A DNA stretch of 64,000 bases, from sequence record OM362897.1; one strand, written 5' to 3'. Position numbers and translations under genes: made by a program. Below the pieces are notes generated by a model. That model saw only the letters and a program-made list of their open reading frames with translations. It searched no databases and had not been told where the DNA came from. This document shows, piece after piece, positions 1 through 32,040 of the stretch; within the stretch, counting starts at the first letter, position 1; the number at the start of each line of letters is the position of its first letter. This DNA comes from Escherichia phage SKA64.

Positions 1-95
1 ACAAGGAGATCGCCACCTGGTTGATCTATAAGCTCAACATGCAAGCCGGATGATTCGGCGGTTTTAACGGCGGTTAATACTGTTGCAATACTCAT
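1..95 (-). CDS. hypothetical protein (N-terminal part; continues past window start)
   Basis: ATG at 93-95 (minus) preceded by AGGAAGGG RBS; frame open to window edge. Confidence 0.35.
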   Translation of the reverse strand, partial: MSIATVLTAVKTAESSGLHVELIDQPGGDLL

Positions 96-116
96 AATCT
101 TTTCCCTTCCTGATGT

Positions 117-132
117 GGGGCGTTGCCGCCCC
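117..132 (-). promoter_or_regulatory. PeSL-like 5' leader stem-loop
   Basis: GGGGCG-TTGC-CGCCCC hairpin between promoter-like hexamers and RBS of minus-strand gene; no U-tract. Confidence 0.5.
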
Positions 133-140
133 TTTGTTGA

Positions 141-440
141 TTAGATCGCTGTTTCCAGTAGTTCGGCTAACGTCTTACCGCCTGATAGTTGGTCTAACGT
201 TTGCTCTTCTGGCAAGAAATTAGCGGATATTAAACCGACCTGGTTCCCTTTGTGCCAGTTAGCCTGACGGGTGATTCCATCCTTCAAGGATTTTACCGCC
301 ATTGTGCAACCATCGCCAAATGATTCATTTTTATGGTCCATCACTTCATAAGCGCCCAGCTTGCTGCTGTTAGGCACCATTAACGCAAATACATCACCAA
401 CAACCAGTTTTTCTACGGTAACAATAGCGATAGTTTCCAT
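141..440 (-). CDS. hypothetical protein (99 aa)
   Basis: ORF track; GAGGAAA RBS before ATG; own promoter and leader hairpin upstream. Confidence 0.6.
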   Translation of the reverse strand: METIAIVTVEKLVVGDVFALMVPNSSKLGAYEVMDHKNESFGDGCTMAVKSLKDGITRQANWHKGNQVGLISANFLPEEQTLDQLSGGKTLAELLETAI

Positions 441-458
441 TTTGTTTTCCTCATTATC

Positions 459-476
459 GGCGGCACCATTGCCGCC
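459..476 (-). promoter_or_regulatory. PeSL-like 5' leader stem-loop
   Basis: GGCGGC-ACCATT-GCCGCC hairpin 20 nt upstream of ATG at 440. Confidence 0.55.
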
Positions 477-487
477 CTACGCATTAA

Positions 488-516
488 ATATAAATTATCT
501 AAGAGATTAGATCAAG
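488..516 (-). promoter_or_regulatory. sigma70-like promoter (minus strand)
   Basis: minus-strand TTGATC-N17-TATATT directly upstream of leader hairpin. Confidence 0.5.
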
Positions 517-518
517 GA

Positions 519-710
519 TTATTTTGTAAAGATTACAGCTTCATCAAAATTTTCAACATAGTAAGCAAGTTTTTCATTTGCTGCAACCAGTTGTAAAAGT
601 TGGTCGTAAGATAATCCATTGATCCCCTCTTCGTTGTTTAAAGCCTCGATGATTTCATCAACGGGCGCAAAAAACATGTTATTCGATTCCAGGTAGGTGA
701 TAGTTTTCAT
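519..710 (-). CDS. hypothetical protein (63 aa)
   Basis: ORF track; AAAGG RBS; own promoter-hairpin cassette. Confidence 0.55.
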   Translation of the reverse strand: MKTITYLESNNMFFAPVDEIIEALNNEEGINGLSYDQLLQLVAANEKLAYYVENFDEAVIFTK

Positions 711-732
711 AATGTTTTACCTTTTTCGGGGA

Positions 733-748
733 GCGGCACCATTGCCGC
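733..748 (-). promoter_or_regulatory. PeSL-like 5' leader stem-loop
   Basis: GCGGC-ACCATT-GCCGC hairpin upstream of ATG at 710. Confidence 0.55.
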
Positions 749-760
749 CCTACGTGGTAA

Positions 761-788
761 ATATTAGCACACTGGCGATCTGTGTCAA
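761..788 (-). promoter_or_regulatory. sigma70-like promoter (minus strand)
   Basis: minus-strand TTGACA-N16-TAATAT. Confidence 0.55.
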
Positions 789-794
789 TACTTT

Positions 795-1181
795 TTATTC
801 AATATAAATCAAATTATCTTCACCAATGTAAGCCGACACGTTCGGCATAAACTTAGCTGCATTGGTTAGGCGGTTCGCCGTGTTAGTGGTGTATATTTCA
901 GGGCGATCCCAAAAGCCTACGCCGTGACCGTTACGGGTAAAATGTAAATCATTCCCGATCTGGTTGGCTGTTGCGCCGTCGCTCATTGCCTCAGAGATAG
1001 CGGCAAGATTAGCATTAATAAAGGCTGTTACATCCTGGGCGATCCGTTCGTCCGCGCTAGGAGAAAAATCATAATCGTCTAAGTTATCAATAAAATTACC
1101 TTCATGATCCCTTGCTGATTCAGCAAAAATAAAGGCTTCTTTATAGCCGTTGATGATTTCAATAATGATTTCTGTTTTCAT
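795..1181 (-). CDS. hypothetical protein (128 aa)
   Basis: ORF track; AAAGAGAGA RBS-like sequence before ATG. Confidence 0.6.
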   Translation of the reverse strand: MKTEIIIEIINGYKEAFIFAESARDHEGNFIDNLDDYDFSPSADERIAQDVTAFINANLAAISEAMSDGATANQIGNDLHFTRNGHGVGFWDRPEIYTTNTANRLTNAAKFMPNVSAYIGEDNLIYIE

Positions 1182-1195
1182 GTTGTGTCTCTCTT

Positions 1196-1300
1196 TTAGC
1201 CGATACCGTGGGAAGATAGGATCATGTTAGCCATAGTTGCAACCACTCCAACCGATAACGCCAGGCCCACTACTACGACCGTGAAAATTTTCTCTAACAT
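1196..1300 (-). CDS. small hydrophobic peptide (34 aa, MLEKIFTVVVVGLALSVGVV...)
   Basis: hand-translated; GAGGG RBS 8 nt before ATG; below ORF-track size cutoff. Confidence 0.35.
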   Translation of the reverse strand: MLEKIFTVVVVGLALSVGVVATMANMILSSHGIG

Positions 1301-1318
1301 GATTCTACCCTCATTAAT

Positions 1319-1342
1319 GGGCGTTGCCTTATTGCCCCGCCC
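1319..1342 (-). promoter_or_regulatory. PeSL-like 5' leader stem-loop (variant)
   Basis: GGGCG...CGCCC inverted repeat preceded on minus strand by TTGACA-N16-TAGAAT. Confidence 0.4.
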
Positions 1343-1381
1343 TACGAAATACATTCTACCCGATTTATAATTGTTGTCAAA

Positions 1382-1651
1382 TTATTTTTTCAAGCTTGAC
1401 CACTCAAAACACGGGGCGATCTCGTTAAAACTTGTGCCCTGTAAAGCACATAATTTTTTAGCAATAGCCGCCGTGACCTGGCGCTGTACGCGCGGATCTG
1501 CTACTGATTGGAGAAAGTAGGCGGCTTTATATGTGATCATGCTTTCACCTGTTTCCTTGTTAACATGATGCACTATTTTAGCCTTATCATCTTTTACCAG
1601 GATGTAACCGGATTCGATGGCCTTGATTGCAACGTCTAATGATATTTTCAT
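1382..1651 (-). CDS. hypothetical protein (89 aa)
   Basis: ORF track; AAGAGG RBS. Confidence 0.6.
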   Translation of the reverse strand: MKISLDVAIKAIESGYILVKDDKAKIVHHVNKETGESMITYKAAYFLQSVADPRVQRQVTAAIAKKLCALQGTSFNEIAPCFEWSSLKK

Positions 1652-1670
1652 GATTTACCTCTTTATTGAC

Positions 1671-1691
1671 GGCGGGGAATACTCCCCCGCC
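1671..1691 (-). promoter_or_regulatory. PeSL-like 5' leader stem-loop
   Basis: GGCGGGG-AATACT-CCCCGCC hairpin upstream of ATG at 1651. Confidence 0.5.
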
Positions 1692-1698
1692 TCATTAA

Positions 1699-1869
1699 TT
1701 ATTCTTCATCGTCGCCGTTATAGTATTCAATGCCATTTTCATCGGTTACGGTGATGTTAACGCCACCGATAGCAACACGATCACGGGCAAACGTCATAGC
1801 TTCATTTAAATCTTCAGACCAAAAAATATTGTGACCTTTGCGCGATACATAAAACATAGTCGGGATCAT
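1699..1869 (-). CDS. hypothetical protein (56 aa)
   Basis: track ORF 1699..1953 trimmed to internal ATG (1867-1869) because the 5' extension translates the leader hairpin; AGAAGAGAAA RBS-like. Confidence 0.5.
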   Translation of the reverse strand: MIPTMFYVSRKGHNIFWSEDLNEAMTFARDRVAIGGVNITVTDENGIEYYNGDDEE

Positions 1870-1890
1870 GATTTGTTTCTCTTCTGTTGT

Positions 1891-1914
1891 GAGCGGTGGA
1901 CCATTCCGCCGCTC
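1891..1914 (-). promoter_or_regulatory. PeSL-like 5' leader stem-loop
   Basis: GAGCGGTGG-ACCATT-CCGCCGCTC hairpin. Confidence 0.5.
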
Positions 1915-1954
1915 TATGTAATAAACTTTACTACGTTGTTTGCCTACTGTCAAA

Positions 1955-2239
1955 TTATTTTTTAATGTTTTGCCCTACAAAATTGATCACTTCCTTAAGC
2001 TGTCTCTCTGTCATGATCGTACCTGGTAACTCTTCTTTAATTTCTTCTGGTAAATAGATATTACCGCGCCAGGTTAACAAACAACCGTTTTGATCTTCGC
2101 AGATAGAATAAGAAAACATCCACTCGCAATCATTCTCAAGCTCCCAAAAACACAAAAAGTCTTCTTTCCCTAAGTTTTCAACGGTTAAGCATAATCCGCG
2201 ACGTGCTGCATAATTAGTTAGGCTTTTTGTAATTTTCAT
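1955..2239 (-). CDS. hypothetical protein (94 aa)
   Basis: track ORF trimmed to ATG at 2237-2239 (upstream extension translates hairpin). Confidence 0.5.
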   Translation of the reverse strand: MKITKSLTNYAARRGLCLTVENLGKEDFLCFWELENDCEWMFSYSICEDQNGCLLTWRGNIYLPEEIKEELPGTIMTERQLKEVINFVGQNIKK

Positions 2240-2260
2240 GATTTTTCTCTCTTCTTGTGA

Positions 2261-2276
2261 GCGGCACCATTGCCGC
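2261..2276 (-). promoter_or_regulatory. PeSL-like 5' leader stem-loop
   Basis: GCGGC-ACCATT-GCCGC hairpin. Confidence 0.55.
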
Positions 2277-2288
2277 CCTACAAGATAC

Positions 2289-2316
2289 ATATTATCAGAC
2301 TACGCGGACTTGTCAA
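2289..2316 (-). promoter_or_regulatory. sigma70-like promoter (minus strand)
   Basis: minus-strand TTGACA-N16-TAATAT. Confidence 0.55.
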
Positions 2317-2317
2317 A

Positions 2318-2428
2318 CTATTTTTTCTTTTTCTTTGCTTCCAACCGTCTAAGGTTACGGCTTGACTTATTGCGCAAGGCGCTTAGATCGTCGTACCCTT
2401 TCCATGCTTGCATATCTTTCGGATTCAT
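2318..2428 (-). CDS. small lysine-rich basic peptide (36 aa, ends KKKKK)
   Basis: AAGGGGG RBS 5 nt before ATG; C-terminal part of track ORF 2318..2590. Confidence 0.35.
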   Translation of the reverse strand: MNPKDMQAWKGYDDLSALRNKSSRNLRRLEAKKKKK

Positions 2429-2438
2429 GTTATCCCCC

Positions 2439-2717
2439 TTAACGATTATAAACATTATGGATGGCTTCAAAGGCAAGATGACCATAAGCCGCCAAATCGG
2501 GATTGATCCAAGCGTTATCCAACATCGTTTCAAGGACTGTGGAATCATCGTATAAAGCATCATAGAAATCTGCACGGATGATCGTTTCAATGTCGTCCGG
2601 TGTTAGTTTGTCGTTCAACTTGCACACTGTTTCAACGTCAACACCAATTTTCCAATTTTGTAAATTAGTGGTTAACATTGTTTTCATTTCTTCGGTTGTT
2701 AATTTAACGATGGTCAT
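2439..2717 (-). CDS. hypothetical protein (92 aa)
   Basis: ORF track; AAGAGAGAAA RBS-like; own promoter-hairpin cassette. Confidence 0.6.
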   Translation of the reverse strand: MTIVKLTTEEMKTMLTTNLQNWKIGVDVETVCKLNDKLTPDDIETIIRADFYDALYDDSTVLETMLDNAWINPDLAAYGHLAFEAIHNVYNR

Positions 2718-2738
2718 GATTTTTTCTCTCTTCTGTTA

Positions 2739-2760
2739 GGCGGGGCGCTTGTCGCCCCTA
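2739..2760 (-). promoter_or_regulatory. PeSL-like 5' leader stem-loop
   Basis: GGGGCG-CTTGT-CGCCCC hairpin. Confidence 0.55.
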
Positions 2761-2768
2761 TGTGATAC

Positions 2769-2796
2769 ATCTTATCAGGTTGATTCAGCTTGTCAA
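2769..2796 (-). promoter_or_regulatory. sigma70-like promoter (minus strand)
   Basis: minus-strand TTGACA-N16-TAAGAT. Confidence 0.55.
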
Positions 2797-2797
2797 A

Positions 2798-2959
2798 CTA
2801 TTTGTTAGCCGGATTATATGCCAGGACCGCGCCGCTTGCTTTCACACTTTCCGCTTCATAGTTGCGCAGATCGTTTTCTGTAAGATTGAGCGCGATCACT
2901 TCCTCGACTTCAACGCCAGCGACAAGGGCGATCTCTTTGATAATGTCTGTTATTTTCAT
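2798..2959 (-). CDS. hypothetical protein (53 aa)
   Basis: track ORF trimmed to ATG at 2957-2959 with AAGGTG RBS. Confidence 0.5.
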   Translation of the reverse strand: MKITDIIKEIALVAGVEVEEVIALNLTENDLRNYEAESVKASGAVLAYNPANK

Positions 2960-2969
2960 GGTGTGCACC

Positions 2970-3089
2970 TTATAAGATGATTGATAAGATAGTGACAACG
3001 AAAGCGATTATACTGATGGCAAATGTCATCTTTTTACCTTCGGATACTGCCGGATTCTCTACCGTGTATTCTACTGTGTACTTGCTCAT
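2970..3089 (-). CDS. small membrane peptide (39 aa, ...FAISIIAFVVTILSIIL)
   Basis: hand-translated; GAGAGGA RBS; stop overlaps RBS of next gene; paralogous to 7448..7552. Confidence 0.45.
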   Translation of the reverse strand: MSKYTVEYTVENPAVSEGKKMTFAISIIAFVVTILSIIL

Positions 3090-3112
3090 CGTGTAATCCT
3101 CTCGTTTGCTTT

Positions 3113-3125
3113 GGGAACTATTCCC
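3113..3125 (-). promoter_or_regulatory. PeSL-like 5' leader stem-loop
   Basis: GGGAA-CTA-TTCCC hairpin; minus-strand TTGCAA-N16-TATATT upstream. Confidence 0.45.
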
Positions 3126-3186
3126 GCCGCCCTATGAATTAAATATACACTATCTCAAAATGATTGCAAGCCTTTTTCTAAATTAT

Positions 3187-3471
3187 TTATGCAGTAAACA
3201 AACCATCATTTACAACGGCGGCGATGATCTCCCGTGCCATTGATTCAGGGAAAGGGGCGCTATAGTCCTGGCTTGTCTCATCGGTATCAGTGATCCAATG
3301 ATAAGCTAACGAGTAAAAGCCTTTACTAACTGTTTTCAGTGAGATGATGATCACTCGGTCAAGCTTATTGGTGAATGTTGCCGTTAATGTGTTACCATCC
3401 TGCGTCATGTTGGACAAGTAAGCGGGATCATTAATCAGGGAAAACATTAGCACGGTGTTAGCTTTACTCAT
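3187..3471 (-). CDS. hypothetical protein (94 aa)
   Basis: track ORF 3187..3501 trimmed to ATG at 3469-3471 (GAGGA RBS); extension overlaps hairpin. Confidence 0.5.
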   Translation of the reverse strand: MSKANTVLMFSLINDPAYLSNMTQDGNTLTATFTNKLDRVIIISLKTVSKGFYSLAYHWITDTDETSQDYSAPFPESMAREIIAAVVNDGLFTA

Positions 3472-3490
3472 GATTGCATCCTCAAAGGGG

Positions 3491-3508
3491 CGCGGCACCA
3501 TTGCCGCC
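3491..3508 (-). promoter_or_regulatory. PeSL-like 5' leader stem-loop
   Basis: GCGGC-ACCATT-GCCGC hairpin. Confidence 0.55.
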
Positions 3509-3518
3509 CTACACGATA

Positions 3519-3546
3519 ACTATAACACAATATAAAACAGGATCAA
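3519..3546 (-). promoter_or_regulatory. sigma70-like promoter (minus strand)
   Basis: minus-strand TTGATC-N16-TATAGT. Confidence 0.5.
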
Positions 3547-3749
3547 CCTTTATTTTTCCACGGTGTCAGCTTGTTAATCATTGGTGATAAATAGCGTTTA
3601 CCAACGTAAAACAGCACGCCAACTGATGCAACGGCGGCGATCTCATGCATAGCCGACGGGAAACGGGTATCATAATAAGATCCAATAATAGCAATAGCGG
3701 CAACGGCTGCAACGTCGATAATGATTTTTTCTTGTTTTGCGGTGATCAT
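3543..3749 (-). CDS. small membrane protein (68 aa)
   Basis: track ORF trimmed to ATG at 3747-3749; hydrophobic stretches AAVAAIAIIG and AAVASVGVLFYVG. Confidence 0.5.
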   Translation of the reverse strand: MITAKQEKIIIDVAAVAAIAIIGSYYDTRFPSAMHEIAAVASVGVLFYVGKRYLSPMINKLTPWKNKG

Positions 3750-3771
3750 AATATTTACCTTTTTGTATGGT

Positions 3772-3788
3772 GGGGGAACTATTCCCCG
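3772..3788 (-). promoter_or_regulatory. PeSL-like 5' leader stem-loop
   Basis: GGGGAA-CTA-TTCCCC hairpin. Confidence 0.5.
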
Positions 3789-3835
3789 CCTGATGTAATA
3801 CAGTTTAACAGGTCCGGTTATGGTGTCAACCACTT

Positions 3836-4021
3836 TTAAAGATATTTTATACTGATAACGTTTTCCGGTTTAACCTTGTTGTGATGTGCATCAACATAGA
3901 TCAAACCATCGTCAGAAAAGCCCAGGATCACGCCCTGCGCGATAAAACCGTATTCGTCACGGTAACGCACGGCTATTTTTAATGTTGCGTTGTAGGCTGT
4001 TTTAAGCTCGTTTAAAGTCAT
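3836..4021 (-). CDS. hypothetical protein (61 aa)
   Basis: ORF track; GAGGA RBS. Confidence 0.55.
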   Translation of the reverse strand: MTLNELKTAYNATLKIAVRYRDEYGFIAQGVILGFSDDGLIYVDAHHNKVKPENVISIKYL

Positions 4022-4040
4022 TTTTGTTTATCCTCTACAT

Positions 4041-4069
4041 GTAAAAAGAAAGGGCGCTTGGTGCGCCCT
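4041..4069 (-). terminator. rho-independent terminator candidate (minus strand)
   Basis: AGGGCGC-TTGGT-GCGCCCT hairpin followed on minus strand by TTCTTTTTAC. Confidence 0.45.
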
Positions 4070-4076
4070 TGTTATG

Positions 4077-4223
4077 TTAATTCTCTAAATCCATCCAATT
4101 ATATTTGTCACTCTTCCCGCGCTTTGTTTTATTGCGCTTGTCGCCTTTGCGGATCACTTCCTCATTCCAGGCCTTGCGGATCTTGGAAGATTGAATTTTT
4201 TCTGCACGATTAGATGTATTCAT
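4077..4223 (-). CDS. small basic protein (48 aa, Lys/Arg-rich)
   Basis: hand-translated; AAAGAGGAAA RBS; followed by terminator-like hairpin. Confidence 0.4.
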   Translation of the reverse strand: MNTSNRAEKIQSSKIRKAWNEEVIRKGDKRNKTKRGKSDKYNWMDLEN

Positions 4224-4242
4224 TTTGTTTCCTCTTTATATG

Positions 4243-4260
4243 AGCGGCACCATTGCCGCT
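4243..4260 (-). promoter_or_regulatory. PeSL-like 5' leader stem-loop
   Basis: AGCGGC-ACCATT-GCCGCT hairpin; minus-strand TTGACA upstream at 4291-4296. Confidence 0.5.
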
Positions 4261-4302
4261 ATATTATTAATTTAAACTGTTTTGTAAAATTGTCAAGGTT
4301 TA

Positions 4303-4656
4303 TCATTCATAAGAGCAAGCAAGGATCACGCCTGCAATATAAAGCCAATAATTTTCCCTTTCTCGTTGGATTTTATCATCGCTGCTATTCTCTTTAATGT
4401 ATCCCCAGGATGTTAACAAGCGATCAATTTCCCAATATTCGAAAGCGATATTAATATCTGATGGCAAACCTTGTAACCATGATGCTATTGCTCTGATAAT
4501 GTTATGATCGTAACGTTTTTGGTTATCGGTATACCAATACTCGGATTTAAAACAGCGCATCAATTCCGCGATCTTCTCTTTATCTTCTGTGATGCCATAC
4601 TTGCTATAATCAATTGAGGCCAGAATATAAAGTTTAATTGCATTTTGTGCTTTCAT
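4303..4656 (-). CDS. hypothetical protein (117 aa)
   Basis: ORF track; AGAAGAGAGA RBS-like. Confidence 0.6.
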   Translation of the reverse strand: MKAQNAIKLYILASIDYSKYGITEDKEKIAELMRCFKSEYWYTDNQKRYDHNIIRAIASWLQGLPSDINIAFEYWEIDRLLTSWGYIKENSSDDKIQRERENYWLYIAGVILACSYE

Positions 4657-4677
4657 GGTGTCTCTCTTCTGTTGTTG

Positions 4678-4694
4678 GCGGCACCATTGCCGCC
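4678..4694 (-). promoter_or_regulatory. PeSL-like 5' leader stem-loop
   Basis: GGCGGC-ACCATT-GCCGCC hairpin. Confidence 0.55.
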
Positions 4695-4733
4695 CTACTT
4701 GTTACATCTTACTGGATTTTTAAAACTTGTCAA

Positions 4734-4955
4734 TCATTTTTCTACTATCATTTGATACCCTGTTTCAACGTTAGAAAACACTGTTATCCCGTCCTGGCGT
4801 TCACTCATTAACATACAAGGCGCTAACATCCTTTCTACTGCCTTGCACTCGTTGTAAACGGCGGTTATATCTCCTGCTGCCTTGTCTTCTGTAGTAAATG
4901 TCTCATTTACGTAAACTTGACCAGCGACAACGGCGACAATAGCGAAAGTGATCAT
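4734..4955 (-). CDS. hypothetical protein (73 aa, N-terminus MITFA)
   Basis: ORF track; AAGGAAA RBS; first 18 nt identical to start of 5029..5196. Confidence 0.55.
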   Translation of the reverse strand: MITFAIVAVVAGQVYVNETFTTEDKAAGDITAVYNECKAVERMLAPCMLMSERQDGITVFSNVETGYQMIVEK

Positions 4956-4989
4956 GATGTTTCCTTGTTAGTAGTGGTTTCTCTTCTCT

Positions 4990-5012
4990 ATAGCGCCCAT
5001 TATAGGCGCTAT
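4990..5012 (-). promoter_or_regulatory. leader stem-loop (variant)
   Basis: AGCGCC-CATTAT-AGGCGCT hairpin upstream of 4955. Confidence 0.4.
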
Positions 5013-5028
5013 AACGAAAAGTCAACTA

Positions 5029-5196
5029 TTATTTTTTAAGGCTTAAAGTGCCTAGCTTATCAGCGTGACGCAGACCAGGGAAGATCCATTTTCCTGATTC
5101 ATCTTTCACCGGGGCTTTAAAAGTAGCGCCCAGGTTGGCGGCGTTAACTTTACGTGCAACGTTGCGAGCGGCTTCACGGGTAGCGAAAGTGATCAT
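5029..5196 (-). CDS. hypothetical protein (55 aa, N-terminus MITFATREAA)
   Basis: hand-translated; GAGGAAAA RBS; below ORF-track cutoff. Confidence 0.45.
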   Translation of the reverse strand: MITFATREAARNVARKVNAANLGATFKAPVKDESGKWIFPGLRHADKLGTLSLKK

Positions 5197-5220
5197 GATA
5201 TTTTCCTCTTCTCTTTGTTA

Positions 5221-5242
5221 GGCGGTGGACCATTCCGCCGCC
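5221..5242 (-). promoter_or_regulatory. PeSL-like 5' leader stem-loop
   Basis: GGCGGTGG-ACCATT-CCGCCGCC hairpin. Confidence 0.5.
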
Positions 5243-5288
5243 TTGATGTAATACAGTTTACTTTATTTTTGCAGTATTGCAAGCGGTT

Positions 5289-5504
5289 TTATGAAATAAA
5301 TGTCAAAGTAAAATCATAATCTTTTGACAGTTTATATTGCACCTTGTTACCGTATATGTCACCTTTACGTAAAGATCCACGGATACCGATAACATCCTTC
5401 ACGTCTTTTAAATTTTTCACGCCTGTAATGTCTTTGTTGAAATACTCGTCATCTGAAAATAAAACTTGCTTTGCATTTTTTAACAAGGTGCGGATATTAG
5501 CCAT
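5289..5504 (-). CDS. hypothetical protein (71 aa)
   Basis: track ORF trimmed to ATG at 5502-5504. Confidence 0.5.
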   Translation of the reverse strand: MANIRTLLKNAKQVLFSDDEYFNKDITGVKNLKDVKDVIGIRGSLRKGDIYGNKVQYKLSKDYDFTLTFIS

Positions 5505-5525
5505 TTTGATAATCTCTCTTACTAG

Positions 5526-5545
5526 GGGCGGCAATAGTGCCGCCC
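5526..5545 (-). promoter_or_regulatory. PeSL-like 5' leader stem-loop
   Basis: GGGCGGC-AATAGT-GCCGCCC hairpin. Confidence 0.5.
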
Positions 5546-5591
5546 TATGAATTACATTTTACTAATTTTAGTTGTCTTGTCAATATTATTT

Positions 5592-5819
5592 TTAGTTTAA
5601 TTGATCCAGGCATAACAGACGATCAACGTTGAGATCGGTCAGGCTAATCGTTGGCACCTGGTAGGATTCGATGTACTCAACGCTCGACCATTGCCCAAAG
5701 TTAGCGACCGCCCAGCTATTCAATGAGGAGTGAAGATCATCCCCTTTCTTCTCGGTGATAACTGCTACTACCTGGGAGATTCCAACCGTGCCGGATACGC
5801 GAACAATAACGATAGCCAT
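5592..5819 (-). CDS. hypothetical protein (75 aa)
   Basis: ORF track; AAAGG RBS. Confidence 0.55.
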   Translation of the reverse strand: MAIVIVRVSGTVGISQVVAVITEKKGDDLHSSLNSWAVANFGQWSSVEYIESYQVPTISLTDLNVDRLLCLDQLN

Positions 5820-5841
5820 AATGATAACCTTTCTTTGATTT

Positions 5842-5862
5842 GGCGGGAAACCATTTCCCGCC
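5842..5862 (-). promoter_or_regulatory. PeSL-like 5' leader stem-loop
   Basis: GGCGGGAAA-CCA-TTTCCCGCC hairpin. Confidence 0.5.
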
Positions 5863-5910
5863 CTATGCGATAAACTACACCAGATTAAAAAACGTTGTCA
5901 ACTGCTTTTA

Positions 5911-6150
5911 TTACATTCCTACCATAGCGGCACGGATTGCAGTTTTACTATACTTGAAACCATCAGGTGTATGAGTGATTCCATCCTGTTTTAATCTGTA
6001 GCACATCAGATCCGCCGCTTTATCTTTATTGCCGCACTCATTTATTAAACCTACAGCGTATAAGTATAACGATTCATCATTATTAATCCAAAGGCTTACA
6101 TTCCAATGAGTTTTATTTTTGTGACCGTTGTACATTTTAGATTTAGCCAT
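5911..6150 (-). CDS. hypothetical protein (79 aa)
   Basis: ORF track. Confidence 0.55.
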   Translation of the reverse strand: MAKSKMYNGHKNKTHWNVSLWINNDESLYLYAVGLINECGNKDKAADLMCYRLKQDGITHTPDGFKYSKTAIRAAMVGM

Positions 6151-6171
6151 GATGTTAATCTCTTTTTCAGT

Positions 6172-6193
6172 GAGGCGGGAACTATTCCCGCTC
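6172..6193 (-). promoter_or_regulatory. PeSL-like 5' leader stem-loop
   Basis: GCGGGAA-CTA-TTCCCGC hairpin. Confidence 0.5.
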
Positions 6194-6238
6194 TCGATAT
6201 AAGTATTATATGCTTTTTATTCGTGCTGTCAATGCTTT

Positions 6239-6604
6239 TTATAAATCTTTTTTACGTTTTACATCGCTTGCATGACTGTATACAGCGATCCCATTATCAC
6301 GGCAAAAGCGGGAAAGGTAGGCATAATTTGAAAACTCTTTACCTTCCAGGTTGATAACCTTGCTAAACTCTTCTAGGGCGACGGTATCAAAATGATCACC
6401 ATAGCCATATTGAAACGGAACGTTAACCACCTCGATCAGTTTACCGCCGATCTCAACGTCAACCATTAAAGAAAAATATGTATTACCGTAGGACCGTTGA
6501 AACCAGCGACGGGCGCTAATATGCACCGCCTCAATGCTGGATAATTCAATTTTAGCCGTGTTAGCCAGGGTAGCATAAGCGGAAACATTAATATTAATAG
6601 CCAT
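6239..6604 (-). CDS. hypothetical protein (121 aa)
   Basis: track ORF; start moved to ATG at 6602-6604 which has AAAGG RBS. Confidence 0.5.
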   Translation of the reverse strand: MAININVSAYATLANTAKIELSSIEAVHISARRWFQRSYGNTYFSLMVDVEIGGKLIEVVNVPFQYGYGDHFDTVALEEFSKVINLEGKEFSNYAYLSRFCRDNGIAVYSHASDVKRKKDL

Positions 6605-6626
6605 GATGATAACCTTTTTCATTGTT

Positions 6627-6647
6627 GGCGGGAAACCACTTCCCGCC
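6627..6647 (-). promoter_or_regulatory. PeSL-like 5' leader stem-loop
   Basis: GGCGGGAA-ACCAC-TTCCCGCC hairpin. Confidence 0.5.
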
Positions 6648-6692
6648 CTATGTGGTAAACTATACTAGAATTTTAAACAATGTCAACCGTTT

Positions 6693-7055
6693 TTATTCGT
6701 AAATTTTACCGCTTTCAGCCCATACCATAACGCGGCGCATACTATCCCAAGTGTTTTGATCCAGGTTTAAGCCGTGCAACTCTTCGGTACTTTCCAGACC
6801 AGGTACCGCCTTGTTGTAAGTCGCATATAAGCGCCCTTGATACTCATACGCCAGAGTAAGATCCGTTTGAATCATCTTTTTAAGCATAGCATTAAGCATC
6901 ATATTAGCGGCATGTTGATCACGTTTTAGCGGTAACATATCAATAAAGGCGCGATAAGCTGAAACATGAATATCAACCGTTTCACGTGGTAAATTTTTCA
7001 TGTCATCGCGGAAAGATACCAGATTAAACATGATAGTATTGATTTGCTTGCTCAT
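6693..7055 (-). CDS. hypothetical protein (120 aa)
   Basis: track ORF trimmed to ATG at 7053-7055 with AAAGGG RBS. Confidence 0.5.
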   Translation of the reverse strand: MSKQINTIMFNLVSFRDDMKNLPRETVDIHVSAYRAFIDMLPLKRDQHAANMMLNAMLKKMIQTDLTLAYEYQGRLYATYNKAVPGLESTEELHGLNLDQNTWDSMRRVMVWAESGKIYE

Positions 7056-7076
7056 TGTGTTACCCTTTTTTGTTTT

Positions 7077-7098
7077 GGCGGGGAAGTATTCCACCGCC
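7077..7098 (-). promoter_or_regulatory. PeSL-like 5' leader stem-loop
   Basis: GGCGGGGAA-GTA-TTCCACCGCC hairpin. Confidence 0.5.
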
Positions 7099-7155
7099 CT
7101 ATGTGTTACATCTTATCAGATTAAAAAACGTTGTCAAGAATATTTTTAGATAATT

Positions 7156-7437
7156 TTAACTGTATGATCCACATCGTTCGCAGTAGTGATCATCGTCGTC
7201 ATCAGCTACCTGGCTGATAAAGTGATCTACTTTTGCTTTTAGGTTATTATAATTATTTTCTACTTCCTTTAATCGCTCCTGATAGTATCCCAGGGCTTCA
7301 ATATACGCCGCCTCTTCTGTTTTTTCACGCATGGCTAAATTCATGCCGCGCGTATCATCATACAGCCAAAAACCATCGGTGCACTCACTCATTGAAAGGG
7401 TAGGGCTTAACTCTTTATGATTAATTACCTTGCTCAT
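7156..7437 (-). CDS. hypothetical protein (93 aa, C-terminal CERCGSYS)
   Basis: track ORF trimmed to ATG at 7435-7437 with AAGG RBS. Confidence 0.5.
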   Translation of the reverse strand: MSKVINHKELSPTLSMSECTDGFWLYDDTRGMNLAMREKTEEAAYIEALGYYQERLKEVENNYNNLKAKVDHFISQVADDDDDHYCERCGSYS

Positions 7438-7447
7438 AGTGTGCGCC

Positions 7448-7552
7448 TTATAGAATGATTGAAACAACAATTGCTACAGTGATCCACACTGGAACGGCTA
7501 ACAAAATAGCGTTAATCGTTCCAACCGTCAAACTATTTTCTTTATTAATCAT
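7448..7552 (-). CDS. small membrane peptide (34 aa, ...VWITVAIVVSIIL)
   Basis: hand-translated; AGAGG RBS; paralog of 2970..3089 with the same downstream junction. Confidence 0.45.
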   Translation of the reverse strand: MINKENSLTVGTINAILLAVPVWITVAIVVSIIL

Positions 7553-7579
7553 TGTAAGCCTCTTGCATAATTTCACTAT

Positions 7580-7599
7580 GAGCGGCACCATTGCCGCCC
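7580..7599 (-). promoter_or_regulatory. PeSL-like 5' leader stem-loop
   Basis: GCGGC-ACCATT-GCCGC hairpin. Confidence 0.55.
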
Positions 7600-7634
7600 T
7601 ACGTGGTAAATATTATGCCAGTGGCGGCGATATG

Positions 7635-8192
7635 TCAAAGACTATTTTCAAAGTTTTCTAGTGCGATCCTTTTTTCTTCCTCTGTTGGCTGATAATCAGG
7701 AAAAGCATCAACACACAACAACGGCGGGATCTCTTCGTACTCTTCCTCTTCCGTTGTCTCCTCGTCTTCCTCCTGGGCTATGGCTGCAATTTTGGCTAAT
7801 TTTCTTTCAGCTTGAATCAATTTACCATCAAGTACGTTTTTTGCCATATTGTAAGCGGTCCAGGTTATGCGCTTACTTTCTAATGCTTCCTCAAGCGCCG
7901 CTATCTTGCTGGGGTATTCATCCAGGACACGAAAAGCCGGATCAACTTTGTACAAAGGATTATCTTTCGCGCCGTCGCTCGCATCTTCCGCACTGGATAA
8001 ATCAGCGTTACCATTTGCCAGCCAGCCAGGGCGCACATAACGCGCTTTTACGTTGCCGTTACTACGTGCTAATCTGTTACCTATTTGCTCACCGCTATAT
8101 CCCGTGGATTCATCGATAAGATGATCGGTAATGATGCGCGGATCATCTGCTTCATGTTTTACCCAAGACTGGATCACATATTCGCGGCCCAT
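7635..8192 (-). CDS. hypothetical acidic protein (185 aa)
   Basis: ORF track; start set to ATG at 8190-8192 (AAGGTGG RBS 5 nt upstream); Glu/Asp-rich C-terminal region. Confidence 0.55.
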   Translation of the reverse strand: MGREYVIQSWVKHEADDPRIITDHLIDESTGYSGEQIGNRLARSNGNVKARYVRPGWLANGNADLSSAEDASDGAKDNPLYKVDPAFRVLDEYPSKIAALEEALESKRITWTAYNMAKNVLDGKLIQAERKLAKIAAIAQEEDEETTEEEEYEEIPPLLCVDAFPDYQPTEEEKRIALENFENSL

Positions 8193-8193
8193 A

Positions 8194-8451
8194 TTAACCA
8201 CCTTTTTTCAACAATTGGCATACTTTAAAAAGACTTGCTGAATCCTTGCAAGGGTAGAAAGATGTACGATAGTCACGTACGCCAACCTTGCGGATCTCGA
8301 TGTTCTCGCATGTTGTTTGATCAAAGATATTTATTTCATCATGCCCCCTTATATAAACATAGTGGGGATGTATTAACGCATATTTTGCTAATCTGTAAAA
8401 AGCGTTATCTTTGAACGCGATCACGTGACCTTTTAATTTGATGTAAAACAT
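8194..8451 (-). CDS. hypothetical protein (85 aa)
   Basis: ORF track; AAGGTGG RBS. Confidence 0.6.
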   Translation of the reverse strand: MFYIKLKGHVIAFKDNAFYRLAKYALIHPHYVYIRGHDEINIFDQTTCENIEIRKVGVRDYRTSFYPCKDSASLFKVCQLLKKGG

Positions 8452-8468
8452 TCTACCACCTTACAAAT

Positions 8469-8487
8469 AGCGGGAACTATTCCCGCT
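8469..8487 (-). promoter_or_regulatory. PeSL-like 5' leader stem-loop
   Basis: AGCGGGAA-CTA-TTCCCGCT hairpin. Confidence 0.5.
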
Positions 8488-8527
8488 TTATGTAACATAT
8501 TAACAAATTATTCGTTAATGTCAAGCC

Positions 8528-8800
8528 TTAAAGCAAAAACGCTACATCTTGCGCTTTTAGTGTAGTATCAACCATTTTCGGGCTTTTATAATCAACAAAG
8601 CGCGCGGTTTTTTCAATAGCGAAACCGAGATAATCTTGTTTATTGAATTTACATTCTTTCTTAAATGTTTCCCGCGCCACGGTGATCGCTGCGTCCAGGG
8701 ATAAACGCCCGTCAATGTTGATATTTGCGAAAGATCCGCCACCGCTCATAGGTTTACCAGTGGTGCCAGTTACGATCATTGTTGCGCTATATGATGCCAT
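8528..8800 (-). CDS. hypothetical protein (90 aa)
   Basis: ORF track; AAGAGAGAAA RBS-like. Confidence 0.55.
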   Translation of the reverse strand: MASYSATMIVTGTTGKPMSGGGSFANINIDGRLSLDAAITVARETFKKECKFNKQDYLGFAIEKTARFVDYKSPKMVDTTLKAQDVAFLL

Positions 8801-8821
8801 GATGATTTCTCTCTTCTGTTA

Positions 8822-8842
8822 GGCGGGGCGCTTGTCGCCCCT
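8822..8842 (-). promoter_or_regulatory. PeSL-like 5' leader stem-loop
   Basis: GGGGCG-CTTGT-CGCCCC hairpin, near-identical to copy at 2739-2760. Confidence 0.55.
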
Positions 8843-8884
8843 ATGTGATACATCTTATCAGGTTGTGGCTTGTTGTCAAGACTT

Positions 8885-9082
8885 TTATTCTATTCCTGCA
8901 ATCTGCTTAACGCGCTTGCATTTTGCAGTATGCTGATCTTCTGTAATTACTCCCATTTCTAACAGTGAATCAATGAAAGATAAAACCGTTTCATGATCAT
9001 CTTGGGGATGACTGAACTCAGTAAAACCGTTTACTATTACGTTGATTTGTCCAGCTTTCGCCACAATGTGCAATGTTGCCAT
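8885..9082 (-). CDS. hypothetical protein (65 aa)
   Basis: track ORF trimmed to ATG at 9080-9082 with GGAG RBS. Confidence 0.5.
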   Translation of the reverse strand: MATLHIVAKAGQINVIVNGFTEFSHPQDDHETVLSFIDSLLEMGVITEDQHTAKCKRVKQIAGIE

Positions 9083-9101
9083 GATCTTAACTCCAAATAG
9101 T

Positions 9102-9121
9102 GAGCGGCACCATTGCCGCCC
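9102..9121 (-). promoter_or_regulatory. PeSL-like 5' leader stem-loop
   Basis: GCGGC-ACCATT-GCCGC hairpin; minus-strand TTGACG-N17-TAATAT upstream. Confidence 0.55.
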
Positions 9122-9268
9122 TACGTGGTAAATATTATGCCGCCACCTGGCGAACGTCAACCACTTTTTCAATCTTTTTATTTTCTTTTTGCTTGCTATA
9201 TATAAAGGAAAGGGCTATCATCTTTCTACCGCGCCAACCAGGGCGCACAACAAAGAAAGGGCGACACC

Positions 9269-9535
9269 ATGACAAATACTACATTACACCTTATGCACTC
9301 ATTGGGCTGGCAAGGCGGCACGGTGCACCAGGTAGCAAGCGCAACGGGCTTAAAGGTTGAAACCGTTCTCAACCTATCAGATTATAAGGTCGAGGATAGT
9401 TATCAATTACAAAGTTACACGGGCGGTTTTACCTGGGCGCGTGAAGGTGGGAAAGAAAGCAATATACCACATTGGGGAAAAGGTGATATTCATTTTTGGC
9501 TAGGTGTCCTGACCTGGCAAGAAAACAAAAAATAA
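9269..9535 (+). CDS. hypothetical protein (88 aa)
   Basis: ORF track; AAAGGG 8 nt before ATG; isolated plus-strand gene. Confidence 0.45.
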   Translation: MTNTTLHLMHSLGWQGGTVHQVASATGLKVETVLNLSDYKVEDSYQLQSYTGGFTWAREGGKESNIPHWGKGDIHFWLGVLTWQENKK

Positions 9536-9537
9536 TC

Positions 9538-9566
9538 TTGACAAGCCCAGGGATCGGGCTTATACT
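9538..9566 (+). promoter_or_regulatory. consensus sigma70 promoter
   Basis: TTGACA-N17-TATACT; spacer is a GATC-centred palindrome AGCCCAGGGATCGGGCT. Confidence 0.65.
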
Positions 9567-9573
9567 GTTTTAC

Positions 9574-9790
9574 ATACAGAAGAGGAAGCGCCACCCCACG
9601 GCGTAAAGGCGGGGCTAACATACCAGGGGCACTGGTTGGAAGGTTGATCGCCGGTAGGCTGGGCGCTATATATTTGTAAAGAAATGTAAAGATAAAATAA
9701 TCGCTTGCTTTCCTGGGTGGATCTGTTATTCTTATTACATGGCGAGGGGACACGGGAGCGCGAGACAAACACCGCCCCTGCGCGTCATTC
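9574..9790 (+). ncRNA. candidate structured non-coding transcript (GC-rich leader)
   Basis: starts at consensus promoter; GC-rich islands with local hairpins (ACCAG-GGGCA-CTGGT at 9621-9635) in an AT-rich genome; no RBS-led ORF. Confidence 0.3.
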
Positions 9791-9797
9791 TCTAAAT

Positions 9798-9816
9798 GAG
9801 AATGATTATCATTTAC
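9798..9816. promoter_or_regulatory. Fur-box-like palindrome
   Basis: GAGAATGATTATCATTTAC matches 15 of 19 positions of GATAATGATAATCATTATC. Confidence 0.35.
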
Positions 9817-9855
9817 CTTATCAAATAAGAATCAATCTCATTTATAAACCTAAAT

Positions 9856-30989: not shown

Positions 30990-31017
30990 TTGACATAGTT
31001 CTTAAAAAGAGTAAGAT
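30990..31017 (+). promoter_or_regulatory. sigma70-like promoter
   Basis: TTGACA-N16-TAAGAT. Confidence 0.6.
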
Positions 31018-31029
31018 ATATCACATGAA

Positions 31030-31048
31030 GCGGGGAATAGTTCCCCGC
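31030..31048 (+). promoter_or_regulatory. PeSL-like 5' leader stem-loop (only plus-strand copy)
   Basis: GCGGGGAA-TAG-TTCCCCGC between promoter and AGAGGAGAAAAG RBS. Confidence 0.55.
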
Positions 31049-31065
31049 AAAGAGAGGAGAAAAGA

Positions 31066-32040
31066 ATGCAACTTGGTTTCCCCATTATTGATGTAGTTGT
31101 TTTAGTTGGTATTTTAGCATTGTCTATTGGTATCGATTTCTTTGGTCACAAAGAAAATAAAGAAATTTCATTCAAATCCGCAGTTGATTGGTCGATCTTT
31201 TGGATTGGTGTATCATTAGCTTATTATGGTTTTGTATACTTCCAACATGGTGCCGATTTTGCTAACTTGTTTTTAAGTGGATATGTGTTGGAAAAATCTT
31301 TGTCGGTAGATAACTTAGTAGTATTTGTAGCAGTATTCGCAAGTTTTGGTATTAAAAGCACACACTTGCAGCACAAGATTCTACTTTGGGGTATTGCAGG
31401 TGCGATTGTCTTCCGAGGTGTGTTTGTAGCAGTAGGCACTTACTTGTTAAGTTTGGGCTGGTATGTTAATATCTTCTTCGGTGCGGTCATCCTTTTCTGT
31501 GCAGCTAAAATGGTATTTGCTGGAGATAATGACGCAGAAGTTGATTACTCTAAACACTGGGCTACCCGTATTGTTCGTAAACTGTTCCCTGTATCTAATA
31601 AAATGGATGGGGAGAAGTTCTTCACAATCGAAAATGGTGTTCGTGTAGCAACTCCAGCTTTGGTTTGCGTATTCGTGATGGAAATGGTGGATGTAATCTT
31701 TGCAGTAGATTCGGTTCCAGCGGTGATCGCAGTGACACAAGAACCCCTACTTGTATTCTCTTCGATGTTATGTGCAATCTTAGGTCTACGTGCTCTGTTC
31801 TTTGTTCTTAGTGTCGCACTGAAGTATCTGGTTCACTTGGAGAAAGCAGTTATTGTGGTTCTGGTGTTTGTAGGCGTTAAACTGATGTATCACCCGTTTG
31901 CAGAAACATTGCATGAGAAAATGAGTTTCCTGCCAGCACATATTGATCCAACTATTAGTATGTATATCGTGCTTGGTACTTTGGCCCTTGGTGTTATTGC
32001 AAGCTTTATCTTCCCTGAAAAAGAAGAAGCTACTATTTAA
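31066..32040 (+). CDS. TerC/Alx-family integral membrane protein
   Basis: multi-pass membrane protein; LSGYVLEKSLSVDNLVVFVAVF and FGAVILFCAAKMVFAGD blocks resemble TerC/Alx family. Confidence 0.8.
   Translation: MQLGFPIIDVVVLVGILALSIGIDFFGHKENKEISFKSAVDWSIFWIGVSLAYYGFVYFQHGADFANLFLSGYVLEKSLSVDNLVVFVAVFASFGIKSTHLQHKILLWGIAGAIVFRGVFVAVGTYLLSLGWYVNIFFGAVILFCAAKMVFAGDNDAEVDYSKHWATRIVRKLFPVSNKMDGEKFFTIENGVRVATPALVCVFVMEMVDVIFAVDSVPAVIAVTQEPLLVFSSMLCAILGLRALFFVLSVALKYLVHLEKAVIVVLVFVGVKLMYHPFAETLHEKMSFLPAHIDPTISMYIVLGTLALGVIASFIFPEKEEATI

Follow-up and report, generated by a model that had tools for sequence, protein, structure and literature searches.

What is the function of the GC-rich hairpins that stand before almost every gene in the early region of Escherichia phage SKA64? 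The question was addressed in a stretch of 64,000 nucleotides of this phage (sequence record OM362897.1), referred to here as the window, in which the minus strand of positions 1-9200 forms a hyperplastic early block of 30 tiny genes. Most transcription units of the block are headed by a modular unit of approximately 75-85 bp, in which a sigma70-type promoter is followed by a hairpin at a fixed distance, a Shine-Dalgarno sequence (SD) and an ATG. The reading that we favour, at a probability of roughly 0.5, is that this unit is a modular early-expression cassette similar to the promoter-early stem-loop (PeSL) cassettes; the hairpin would be a 5'-terminal mRNA stem-loop that acts as a stabiliser or insulator, and the repeats would serve as a recombination linker. 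The probability is set no higher because we infer both the start sites and any effect on the RNA. An earlier sequence-only reading, which had described an array of promoters with leader hairpins, appears to be largely right, and the units would be PeSL-like cassettes outside the T4-like phages, with a leader hairpin in a fixed place.

A megablast search with positions 100-9130 matched 243 phage records. The best matches were the phages tuntematon, 536P1, Mt1B1_P17 and KKP 3954, with 93-94% identity over about 90% of the query. Judged by sequence, the source phage is a Phapecoctavirus (Stephanstirmvirinae), a member of the phAPEC8 group of rV5-like myoviruses, and not a relative of T4. All 30 array products are ORFans of unknown function. 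The genes 710..519 and 1651..1382 are the only two array genes without a PHROG family; the former is missing from most relatives and the latter is replaced there by a different gene.

No match at the gathering score was obtained when the whole window was scanned with Rfam 15, a tRNA scan of the window was empty, and a search of 5,426 complete E. coli genomes with the 38-nt cassette core was negative up to an E value of 10. An origin from host elements of the repetitive extragenic palindromic or bacterial interspersed mosaic element type (GTAG plus a GC palindrome) was rejected, since no E. coli match was found; the RTAG that precedes the stem is a mere resemblance.

Hairpins and promoters of the early block

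Perfect GC-rich hairpins were searched for on both strands of all 64 kb without prior positions, and the minus strand of 1-9600 was also read. All 24 hairpins of the sequence-only reading were recovered on the minus strand, each within a few bases (Table 1). Under a strict filter, 21 sense-strand hairpins were found in 1-9130, compared to approximately 14 in the next 55 kb, most of which were terminators with a T-tract. The remaining three array hairpins (at 7077, of the 5220/1891 type, and at 3769) have one bulge or mismatch and energies of -10 to -16 kcal/mol; the folding energies of all 24 ranged from -7.8 to -20 kcal/mol.

Twenty-one of the 24 hairpins lie 9-11 nt 3' of a sigma70-type -10 box. 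The promoters of these 21 units consist of a TTGACA-like -35 box, a spacer of 16-17 nt and a TAnnnT -10 box, with an extended -10 TG in several; in a consensus scan of the minus strand, 15 promoters matched at 10 or more of 12 positions, and six more are weaker. An A-rich tract precedes the -35 box; the 20 nt upstream of the box were 76% A+T, compared to 59% for the region. Alignment of the 24 units, together with the reading of the minus strand, confirmed the proposed order of promoter, hairpin just past the predicted start, ribosome binding site and ATG: TTGACA, 16-17 nt, TAnnnT (preceded by TG in eight), about 10 nt with the consensus gTAtCACATA, a hairpin whose 5' side begins GGGCGG or GCGGG, a purine-rich SD stretch and the ATG. 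The start region is conserved in the cassettes, with the consensus ...CAYRTAG, and the GC-rich hairpin measures 16-24 nt.

The suggestion that almost every gene has its own promoter and leader hairpin held for most of the array. There were 21 complete units for the 30 genes, together with one variant unit whose palindrome encloses the -10 box and two hairpins that lack a promoter; six genes (starts 8192, 7437, 4021, 2959, 2427 and 1181) lack a cassette, and their translation is coupled to that of the preceding gene. The same reading had held that many open reading frames (ORFs) were spuriously extended through the hairpins, and this was the case for three. ORFs 7591 and 3501 begin at an ATG within the loop AATGGT, which gives a spurious N-terminal extension through the hairpin, and for ORF 2290 the extension starts at an ATG that lies upstream of the hairpin and overlaps the -10 box; the real starts are at 7552, 3471 and 2239, respectively, each with an SD. 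A leader peptide initiated at the loop ATG was considered and rejected, since it is inconsistent between copies and AATAGT loops have no ATG. A sigma54 promoter in the antisense GGCAC..TTGC was also rejected on reading, as the GG-to-GC spacing looks about 3 nt shorter than the sigma54 consensus.

A covariance model of the hairpins, which had been proposed as a check, confirmed their clustering, with 19 loci in 1-9130, one at 31030 and five elsewhere. The model was dominated by sequence; it was seeded on hairpins with 8 bp and a 3-nt loop, it scores the GGCGGC-AATGGT type weakly, and its alignment mixes both strands.

Position of the hairpin in the predicted leader

To relate hairpins to promoters, the 42 nt that follow each sigma70-like match were folded, for all such matches in the early regions of the window and nine relatives. 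A hairpin of -9 kcal/mol or better was present within 42 nt of 111 of the 133 two-mismatch promoter matches (83%). Hairpins of this stability occurred in 15/400 and 8/300 random 42-mers (3-4%), and an association by chance is therefore excluded. In 117 of 167 cases from the ten phages the first paired base was 9-11 nt past the -10 box; a minor peak at 2-4 nt represents the same hairpin with extra outer pairs.

Start sites were predicted from the spacing to the -10 box, and the leader figures for the 21 units of the window assume a start 7 nt past it. On that assumption the hairpin follows a 5' tail that averages 4.1 nt (sd 0.8; range 2-5 nt), begins at about +3 to +6 of the predicted transcript and lies in an untranslated region of 39-52 nt. 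The distance from hairpin to ATG was 17-27 nt (mean 20.5, sd 2.5), the probability that the outer stem is paired was 0.93, and the SD region was unpaired with a mean probability of 0.70; the hairpin would thus leave the ribosome binding site free. Both hairpins without a promoter keep a distance of 19-21 nt to their ATG.

Intrinsic terminators consist of a GC hairpin followed by a U-tract. Consistent with the earlier statement that the array hairpins lack U-tracts, only 0-4 T were counted in the 10 nt that follow them, and the sole terminator-like hairpin on the sense strand of the array was that at 4070-4050. The fixed place past the -10 box points to a role in the 5' leader instead of a terminator of the PeSL type. 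The terminator at 4050-4070, in the middle of the array, is bidirectional; the gene that follows it, 4021..3836, lacks its own promoter and must therefore be expressed by read-through.

Conservation of the hairpin among relatives

When a 66-nt cassette was used as the query, full-length matches were obtained in Phapecoctavirus, and only the segment from the -10 box to the hairpin was matched in Justusliebigvirus and Vequintavirus. In alia (Justusliebigvirus) and nimi (Vequintavirus) the early region has the same layout with other stems and loops, examples being GGCGGGAATGTTTCCCGCC, GGGGCAAGACGTTTGCCCC, GGGGAGACACTCCCC and GGGGGGCAACAAGCCCCACC. Across the three genera, 42 distinct hairpin sequences occupy the one position.

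Per-site divergence was determined for orthologous cassettes in nine relatives. The stem was the least variable part (2.9%; 62/2162), followed by the start of the coding sequence (3.6%), the promoter (4.7%), the 25 nt after the stem (5.8%), the 11 nt before the stem, which include the 5' tail (8.2%), and the loop or bulge (9.1%). At four orthologous positions (c8833, c4686, c5536 and c5852) relatives have a different type of hairpin, but a hairpin is always kept. The loop of c5536 (window 5526-5545), ACTATT, is the reverse complement of the AATAGT of its relatives, and this palindrome appears to have been flipped. Covariation analysis with RNAalifold on MAFFT alignments returned no structures or trivial ones; MAFFT misaligns the 3' arms of stems that differ in length. 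The sequence comparisons show selection for self-complementarity at a fixed place, and to name RNA as the active form goes beyond them.

These data bear on two readings in which a protein recognises the element. In the first, the hairpin would be an RNA tag shared by the early regulon of three rV5-like genera and bound or cut by a dedicated phage or host factor; the early mRNAs would be jointly switched off, protected or localised, as with RegB/RegA of T4, and the element would double as a recombination linker for new ORFans. A phage protein might in this way time the shut-off of all early mRNAs, or the phage mRNAs might escape the decay of host mRNA that the phage boosts; the hairpin would in that case do more than stabilise passively. 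The 5' arm is G-rich, 17 of the 24 window hairpins have the loop AAT(G/A)GT or AGTGGT next to stem pairs that differ, 18-20 nt are the same in eight copies, and the element marks only one temporal class of genes; inactivation of early mRNAs by the phage is known for T4 (PMC3014915). Against a tag, the loop is the least conserved part between orthologous cassettes, the motif AAT(G/A)GT is conserved neither between orthologues nor in Vequintavirus, where loops such as TGT, AAC, ACA and AGACG differ strongly, and the loop of c5536 is inverted. As for the hairpin-binding phage or host protein that had been suggested as a target, neither in the 30 array proteins nor in the neighbouring ones could an RNA-binding or nuclease family be recognised. 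We consider the tag unlikely; if it were real, it would constitute a new layer of temporal control. A link to an Srd-like anti-sigma/RNase E factor (rV5 gp11; PMC3606486) was dropped as speculation, as that family was not recognised among the ORFs near the divergent point at 16.7 kb.

In the second, the palindrome would be a duplex DNA operator at +4 to +25, on which a dimeric phage repressor shuts the early promoters. A protein bound at this place would block RNA polymerase, most copies have GGCGG and CCGCC as outer half-sites, and the palindrome at 4988-5014 overlaps a -10 box. The spacing from GGCGG to CCGCC varies from 8 to 12 nt, however, which fits stems of differing length and not a rigid dimeric site on DNA; other copies have the half-sites GGGGCG, GGGGAG or GGGGCAA, and bulges and mismatches are tolerated. 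An operator is accordingly very improbable.

In phAPEC8, for which 1-50 kb and 100-147.7 kb (two-thirds of the genome) were covered, cassettes were confined to 143.7-147.7 kb plus 1-3.2 kb, and were followed in the covered part by operon-like gene blocks without cassettes. In the Salmonella phage UAB_1 (Justusliebigvirus; 12782-13124) the array ends about 1 kb from the annotated direct terminal repeat of the right end. The array of UAB_1 may therefore adjoin a physical end of the genome. Cassettes of the rV5-like kind, 90-96% identical to coliphage sequences, were also present in the MG0656xx records ('Campylobacter phage A142, A140, C3 ...', approximately 140 kb), whose host labels look doubtful.

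Recombination at the cassettes

A repeat search returned several families of direct repeats (9 x 61 nt, 10 x 55 nt, 3 x 108 nt and 2 x 82 nt). When the window was compared by Blast with seven relatives, 38 of the 87 ends of synteny blocks fell in cassettes, which make up 20% of the region. Two relatives have a single, cleanly chimeric cassette. In Mt1B1_P17, the cassette before the orthologue of gene 440 is identical to c741 as far as the hairpin and to c468 beyond it, and gene 710..519 is absent; in nieznany, the cassette matches c2269 as far as the hairpin and c468 from there on, and about 1.8 kb is absent. The switch point of both lies inside GTAGGGCGGCAATGGTGCCGC, and the c741/c468 chimera is also carried by phAPEC8. 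A third candidate, at 5269|5539, was rejected as a clean chimera, as the -35 region of the relative matches neither window cassette. According to the annotation tables, gene families common to Vequintavirus and Phapecoctavirus stand in different orders. Because the crossovers of the chimeric cassettes lie inside the hairpin, the cassettes also act as recombination linkers, and the clean chimeras provide direct evidence that the units are joints for the exchange of ORFans.

This behaviour raises the possibility that the hairpin has no selected function and that the palindrome is a passenger, or a hotspot, of the recombination or gene conversion by which cassettes are copied. Crossovers within the hairpin, the swapping of hairpin types between orthologous positions and the long near-identical repeats speak for a passenger. 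The stems, however, are more conserved than the adjoining starts of coding sequence, each swap retains a hairpin, and the position is held in three genera despite sequence drift, on a background hairpin frequency of 3-4%. For these reasons a passenger is regarded as improbable, more so than the tag.

Two further observations concern repeats at gene borders. The genes 7552..7448 and 3089..2970, which encode tiny membrane proteins, share a 3' junction of about 35 nt (TCAATCATyyTATAAGGyGCACACyATGA; window 7448-7470 and 2970-2990, minus strand) that couples them to the next gene; a synteny breakpoint at 7484 adjoins one of these sites, and the junction may be a second kind of recombination linker. 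At window 4940-4969 and 5181-5210 the cassette repeat runs into the first five codons (MITFA) of the genes at 4955 and 5196, over 30 nt that are 87% identical. This similarity points to an earlier crossover or duplication in which the start of the coding sequence took part.

Proposed role of the hairpin in early expression

If the favoured reading is correct, host RNA polymerase would fire from every cassette straight after infection, and the first 25 nt or so of each mRNA would fold as the hairpin, with a single-stranded 5' tail of 2-5 nt. The 5'-terminal stem-loop would shield the mRNA from decay that depends on the 5' end (RppH/RNase E), as in ompA, papA and clpQY, and would keep the 5' end from pairing with the variable ORFan behind it. 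Any gene placed behind a cassette would then receive equally strong expression, independent of context. Because stretches of 20-60 bp of the cassettes recur in direct orientation every 0.3-1.5 kb, homologous recombination between them could delete, insert or reorder genes, with the expression signals left intact.

Several observations weigh against a stem-loop at the mRNA terminus. The tail of 2-5 nt rests on assumed start sites. The palindrome at 4988-5014 cannot be part of its own transcript, since the -10 box TATAAT is its loop, and any action of it is limited to DNA or read-through RNA; the two hairpins without a promoter would be 5'-terminal only on a processed mRNA. In alia and nimi, several good promoters lack a hairpin, and the hairpin is therefore not obligatory. 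When sense and antisense folding energies were compared for the 42 hairpins, 18 favoured the sense strand, 11 the antisense strand and 13 were equal (Wilcoxon p=0.12). Two conserved hairpin families have a sense-strand C.A mismatch that would be G.U on the antisense strand (hairpins 5220-5243, 1891-1914 and 3769-3790), and the mismatch is kept in several relatives. Finally, in RB49/phi1 one PeSL stem-loop reduced downstream lacZ as much as rrnB T1 did (PMC2839356).

This last result would fit an attenuator of the PeSL type, in which the hairpins stop or dampen transcription from the cassette upstream and so avoid a pile-up, with the leader position being incidental. Nearly every intergenic gap holds a hairpin, and the 4988-5014 palindrome and the promoter-less hairpins at 117 and 1671 would be seen only by read-through transcripts. 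The absence of U-tracts argues against such a role, and a terminator placed 9-11 nt past the next -10 box would also abort the transcripts of its own cassette; nor would an attenuator of upstream transcription have any reason to keep a fixed distance from the -10 box. Attenuation is considered a minority possibility, on a par with the tag.

Feature coordinates and neighbouring features

The units of the array and two units of the same design outside it are listed in Table 1. The gene at ATG 31067, behind the isolated cassette, is the orthologue of the phAPEC8 TerC-like gene.

Table 1. Cassettes, hairpins and the terminator of the early block, and related units elsewhere in the window (SD, Shine-Dalgarno sequence).
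Feature	Positions	Strand	Promoter	Hairpin or palindrome	Start codon and remarks
Cassette c9111	9083..9160	-	TTGACG-N17-TAATAT	9102-9121 GGGCGGCAATGGTGCCGCTC	SD, ATG 9082
Cassette c8833	8801..8879	-	TTGACA-N16-(TGa)TAAGAT	8825-8841 GGGGCGACAAGCGCCCC	ATG 8800; 82-nt repeat in common with c2750
Cassette c8478	8452..8524	-	TTGACA-N16-TAATAT	8469-8487 AGCGGGAATAGTTCCCGCT	ATG 8451
Cassette c7590	7553..7638	-	TTGACA-N17-TAATAT	7580-7599 GGGCGGCAATGGTGCCGCTC	ATG 7552 (tiny membrane protein)
Cassette c7088	7056..7137	-	TTGACA-N16-TAAGAT	7077-7098 GGCGGTGGAATACTTCCCCGCC, bulged	ATG 7055
Cassette c6637	6605..6686	-	TTGACA-N16-TATAGT	6627-6647 GGCGGGAAGTGGTTTCCCGCC	ATG 6604
Cassette c6183	6151..6232	-	TTGACA-N16-TATAAT (12/12)	6172-6195 GAGAGCGGGAATAGTTCCCGCCTC	ATG 6150
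Cassette c5852	5820..5901	-	TTGACA-N16-TGTAGT	5842-5862 GGCGGGAAATGGTTTCCCGCC	ATG 5819
Cassette c5536	5505..5583	-	TTGACA-N16-TAAAAT	5526-5545 GGGCGGCACTATTGCCGCCC	ATG 5504; loop inverted relative to AATAGT of relatives
Cassette c5232	5197..5282	-	TTGCAA-N16-TAAACT	5220-5243 AGGCGGCGGAATGGTCCACCGCCT, sense-strand C.A mismatch	ATG 5196
Variant unit	4956..5025	-	TTGACT-N15-TATAAT	4988-5014 TTATAGCGCC-TATAAT-GGGCGCTATAG, palindrome around -10	ATG 4955
Cassette c4686	4657..4733	-	TTGACA-N16-TAAGAT	4677-4694 GGCGGCAATGGTGCCGCC	ATG 4656
Cassette c4252	4224..4296	-	TTGACA-N16-TAAATT	4243-4260 AGCGGCAATGGTGCCGCT	ATG 4223
Intrinsic terminator	4050..4070	.		AAGGGCGCACCAAGCGCCCTT + TCTTTTT	Sole sense-strand array hairpin with T-tract; contrast case
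Cassette c3780	3750..3829	-	TTGACA-N16-TAAACT	3769-3790 GGCGGGGAATAGTTCCCCCACC, C.A mismatch	ATG 3749
Cassette c3500	3472..3546	-	TTGATC-N16-TATAGT	3490-3509 GGGCGGCAATGGTGCCGCGC	ATG 3471
Cassette c3120	3090..3169	-	TTGCAA-N16-TATATT	3108-3130, degenerate (core GGGAATAGTTCCC, -7.8 kcal/mol)	ATG 3089
Cassette c2750	2718..2796	-	TTGACA-N16-TAAGAT	2742-2758 GGGGCGACAAGCGCCCC	ATG 2717
Cassette c2269	2240..2316	-	TTGACA-N16-TAATAT	2259-2278 GGGCGGCAATGGTGCCGCTC	ATG 2239; upstream partner of nieznany chimera
Cassette c1903	1870..1953	-	TTGACA-N17-TAAAGT	1891-1914 GAGCGGCGGAATGGTCCACCGCTC	ATG 1869
Promoter-less hairpin	1671..1691	-		GGCGGGGGAGTATTCCCCGCC	7 nt past upstream stop, 19 nt before ATG 1651 (ORFan, no PHROG)
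Cassette c1325	1301..1380	-	TTGACA-N16-TAGAAT	1318-1341 GGGCGGGGCAATAAGGCAACGCCC, two-tier	ATG 1300
Cassette c741	711..788	-	TTGACA-N16-TAATAT	731-750 GGGCGGCAATGGTGCCGCTC	ATG 710 (ORFan absent from most relatives)
Cassette c468	441..515	-	TTGATC-N17-TATATT	459-476 GGCGGCAATGGTGCCGCC	ATG 440; downstream partner of both chimeras
Promoter-less hairpin	117..132	-		GGGGCGGCAACGCCCC	11 nt past upstream stop, 21 nt before ATG 95
Divergent unit, same design	9193..9268	+	TTGCTA-N17-TATCAT, then 9 nt	9231-9246 GCGCCAACCAGGGCGC	SD, ATG 9269 (gene 9269-9535)
Isolated full cassette outside array	30990..31066	+	TTGACA-N16-TAAGAT	31030-31048 GCGGGGAATAGTTCCCCGC	AGGAG, ATG 31067

Next to the array, at window 9538-10340 on the plus strand, a strong promoter-like TTGACA-N17-TATACT (11/12) with a hairpin at 9543-9561 in its spacer faces an ORF-free stretch of about 800 bp. 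One part of it (9585-9790) is GC-rich; another is AT-rich and contains iteron-like repeats (aatgNgaatNattatcattt, twice, and 'aaactttaaat', about four times). Relatives carry the annotation repeat_region there, and no Rfam match was obtained in it. It may be an origin or a non-coding RNA.

Comparison with known systems

The rV5-, phAPEC8- and phi92-like phages are often isolated for therapy and biocontrol, and their early programme is almost wholly uncharacterised. The map presented here places approximately 22 early transcription units in each genome at precise, testable positions, and it amends start codons pushed into the hairpins by gene callers. The cassette, a compact part that combines a promoter, a putative stabilising hairpin and a ribosome binding site, could be of use in phage engineering and synthetic biology.

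Hairpin promoters exist for the virion RNA polymerase of phage N4, and the element could in principle be a phage-specific promoter. The record of phAPEC8 (JX561091) says as much: in the orthologous region of that phage the 20-mer gtagggcggcaatggtgccg, which is the hairpin, is annotated at 11 sites as a 'putative promoter determined with PHIRE', and the sigma70 part is a separate 'host dependent promoter (MEME)'. PHIRE, however, merely reports over-represented 20-mers, and a canonical sigma70 promoter lies at a fixed distance upstream of almost every copy. The rV5 genome paper assigns the promoters to the host holo-RNA polymerase, and no homologues of T4 gp33, gp45 or gp55 were reported (PMC3606486). 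Of all the readings, a phage-specific promoter is by our estimate the least probable. JX561091 treats the hairpin as a second promoter and does not note the palindrome, its fixed position or recombination; the repeat had therefore been seen before, but had not been read as a leader hairpin or a recombination linker. A literature search on Phapecoctavirus, rV5 and phi92 found no paper that describes such hairpins, and the rV5 paper lists only promoters and terminators (PMC3606486).

In the PAK_P1-like Pseudomonas phages, sigma70 early promoters form 41-nt repeats (PMC4309531). As in the cassettes, conserved promoters of the host type are clustered in a variable early region; unlike the cassettes, those repeats have no described leader hairpin, and the sequences are unrelated.

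The leader hairpin of phage T7 gene 10 is one example of a 5'-terminal stabiliser. In E. coli, stem-loops at the 5' terminus stabilise the ompA, papA and clpQY mRNAs (PMC2681174 and work cited therein); accessible 5' ends with a monophosphate are the preferred substrates of RNase E/G, through which T4 infection speeds the decay of host mRNA (PMC3014915). The cassettes resemble the three E. coli leaders in having a stable hairpin a few nt from the predicted 5' end, an unstructured leader and a free SD, and in that structure is kept and not sequence. They differ in that the E. coli cases are single genes with measured effects on half-life, whereas here a repeated module serves a whole regulon and the start sites are predicted.

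PeSLs were initially reported from RB49/phi1, and PST/T4 and nt-1/KVP40 followed; each comprises a sigma70 early promoter, a stem-loop in one of five positions, an SD and an ATG, in hyperplastic regions, and the stem-loop was taken for a terminator or attenuator, while indels and mini-circles were ascribed to recombination among the copies (PMC2839356, PMC4122927). The likeness to PeSLs that had been proposed stood for the architecture: a unit of about 70-100 bp, made up of an AT-rich tract, a sigma70 early promoter close to the consensus, a stem-loop of a G-run and a C-run, an SD and an ATG, is repeated many times before ORFans in a hyperplastic region, at the indel junctions of close relatives and with crossovers within the cassette. 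Even the PeSL sub-classes with the stem-loop over the -10 box (4988-5014) or in the spacer from the -35 to the -10 box (9538-9566; hairpin 9543-9561) are represented. The likeness did not extend to the lineage, which is Stephanstirmvirinae/Vequintavirinae and not T4-type, or to the place of the stem-loop, which in PeSLs is mostly between or over the promoter boxes, whereas in the window 21 of 24 lie 9-11 nt past the -10 box, inside the predicted transcript. PeSL stem-loops have been read, and once measured, as terminators, whereas the cassette hairpins have no U-tracts. The idea of regulatory cassettes that double as recombination linkers would thus extend beyond phages of the T4 type, and the stem-loop would have another role here, that of a 5' structure of the mRNA.

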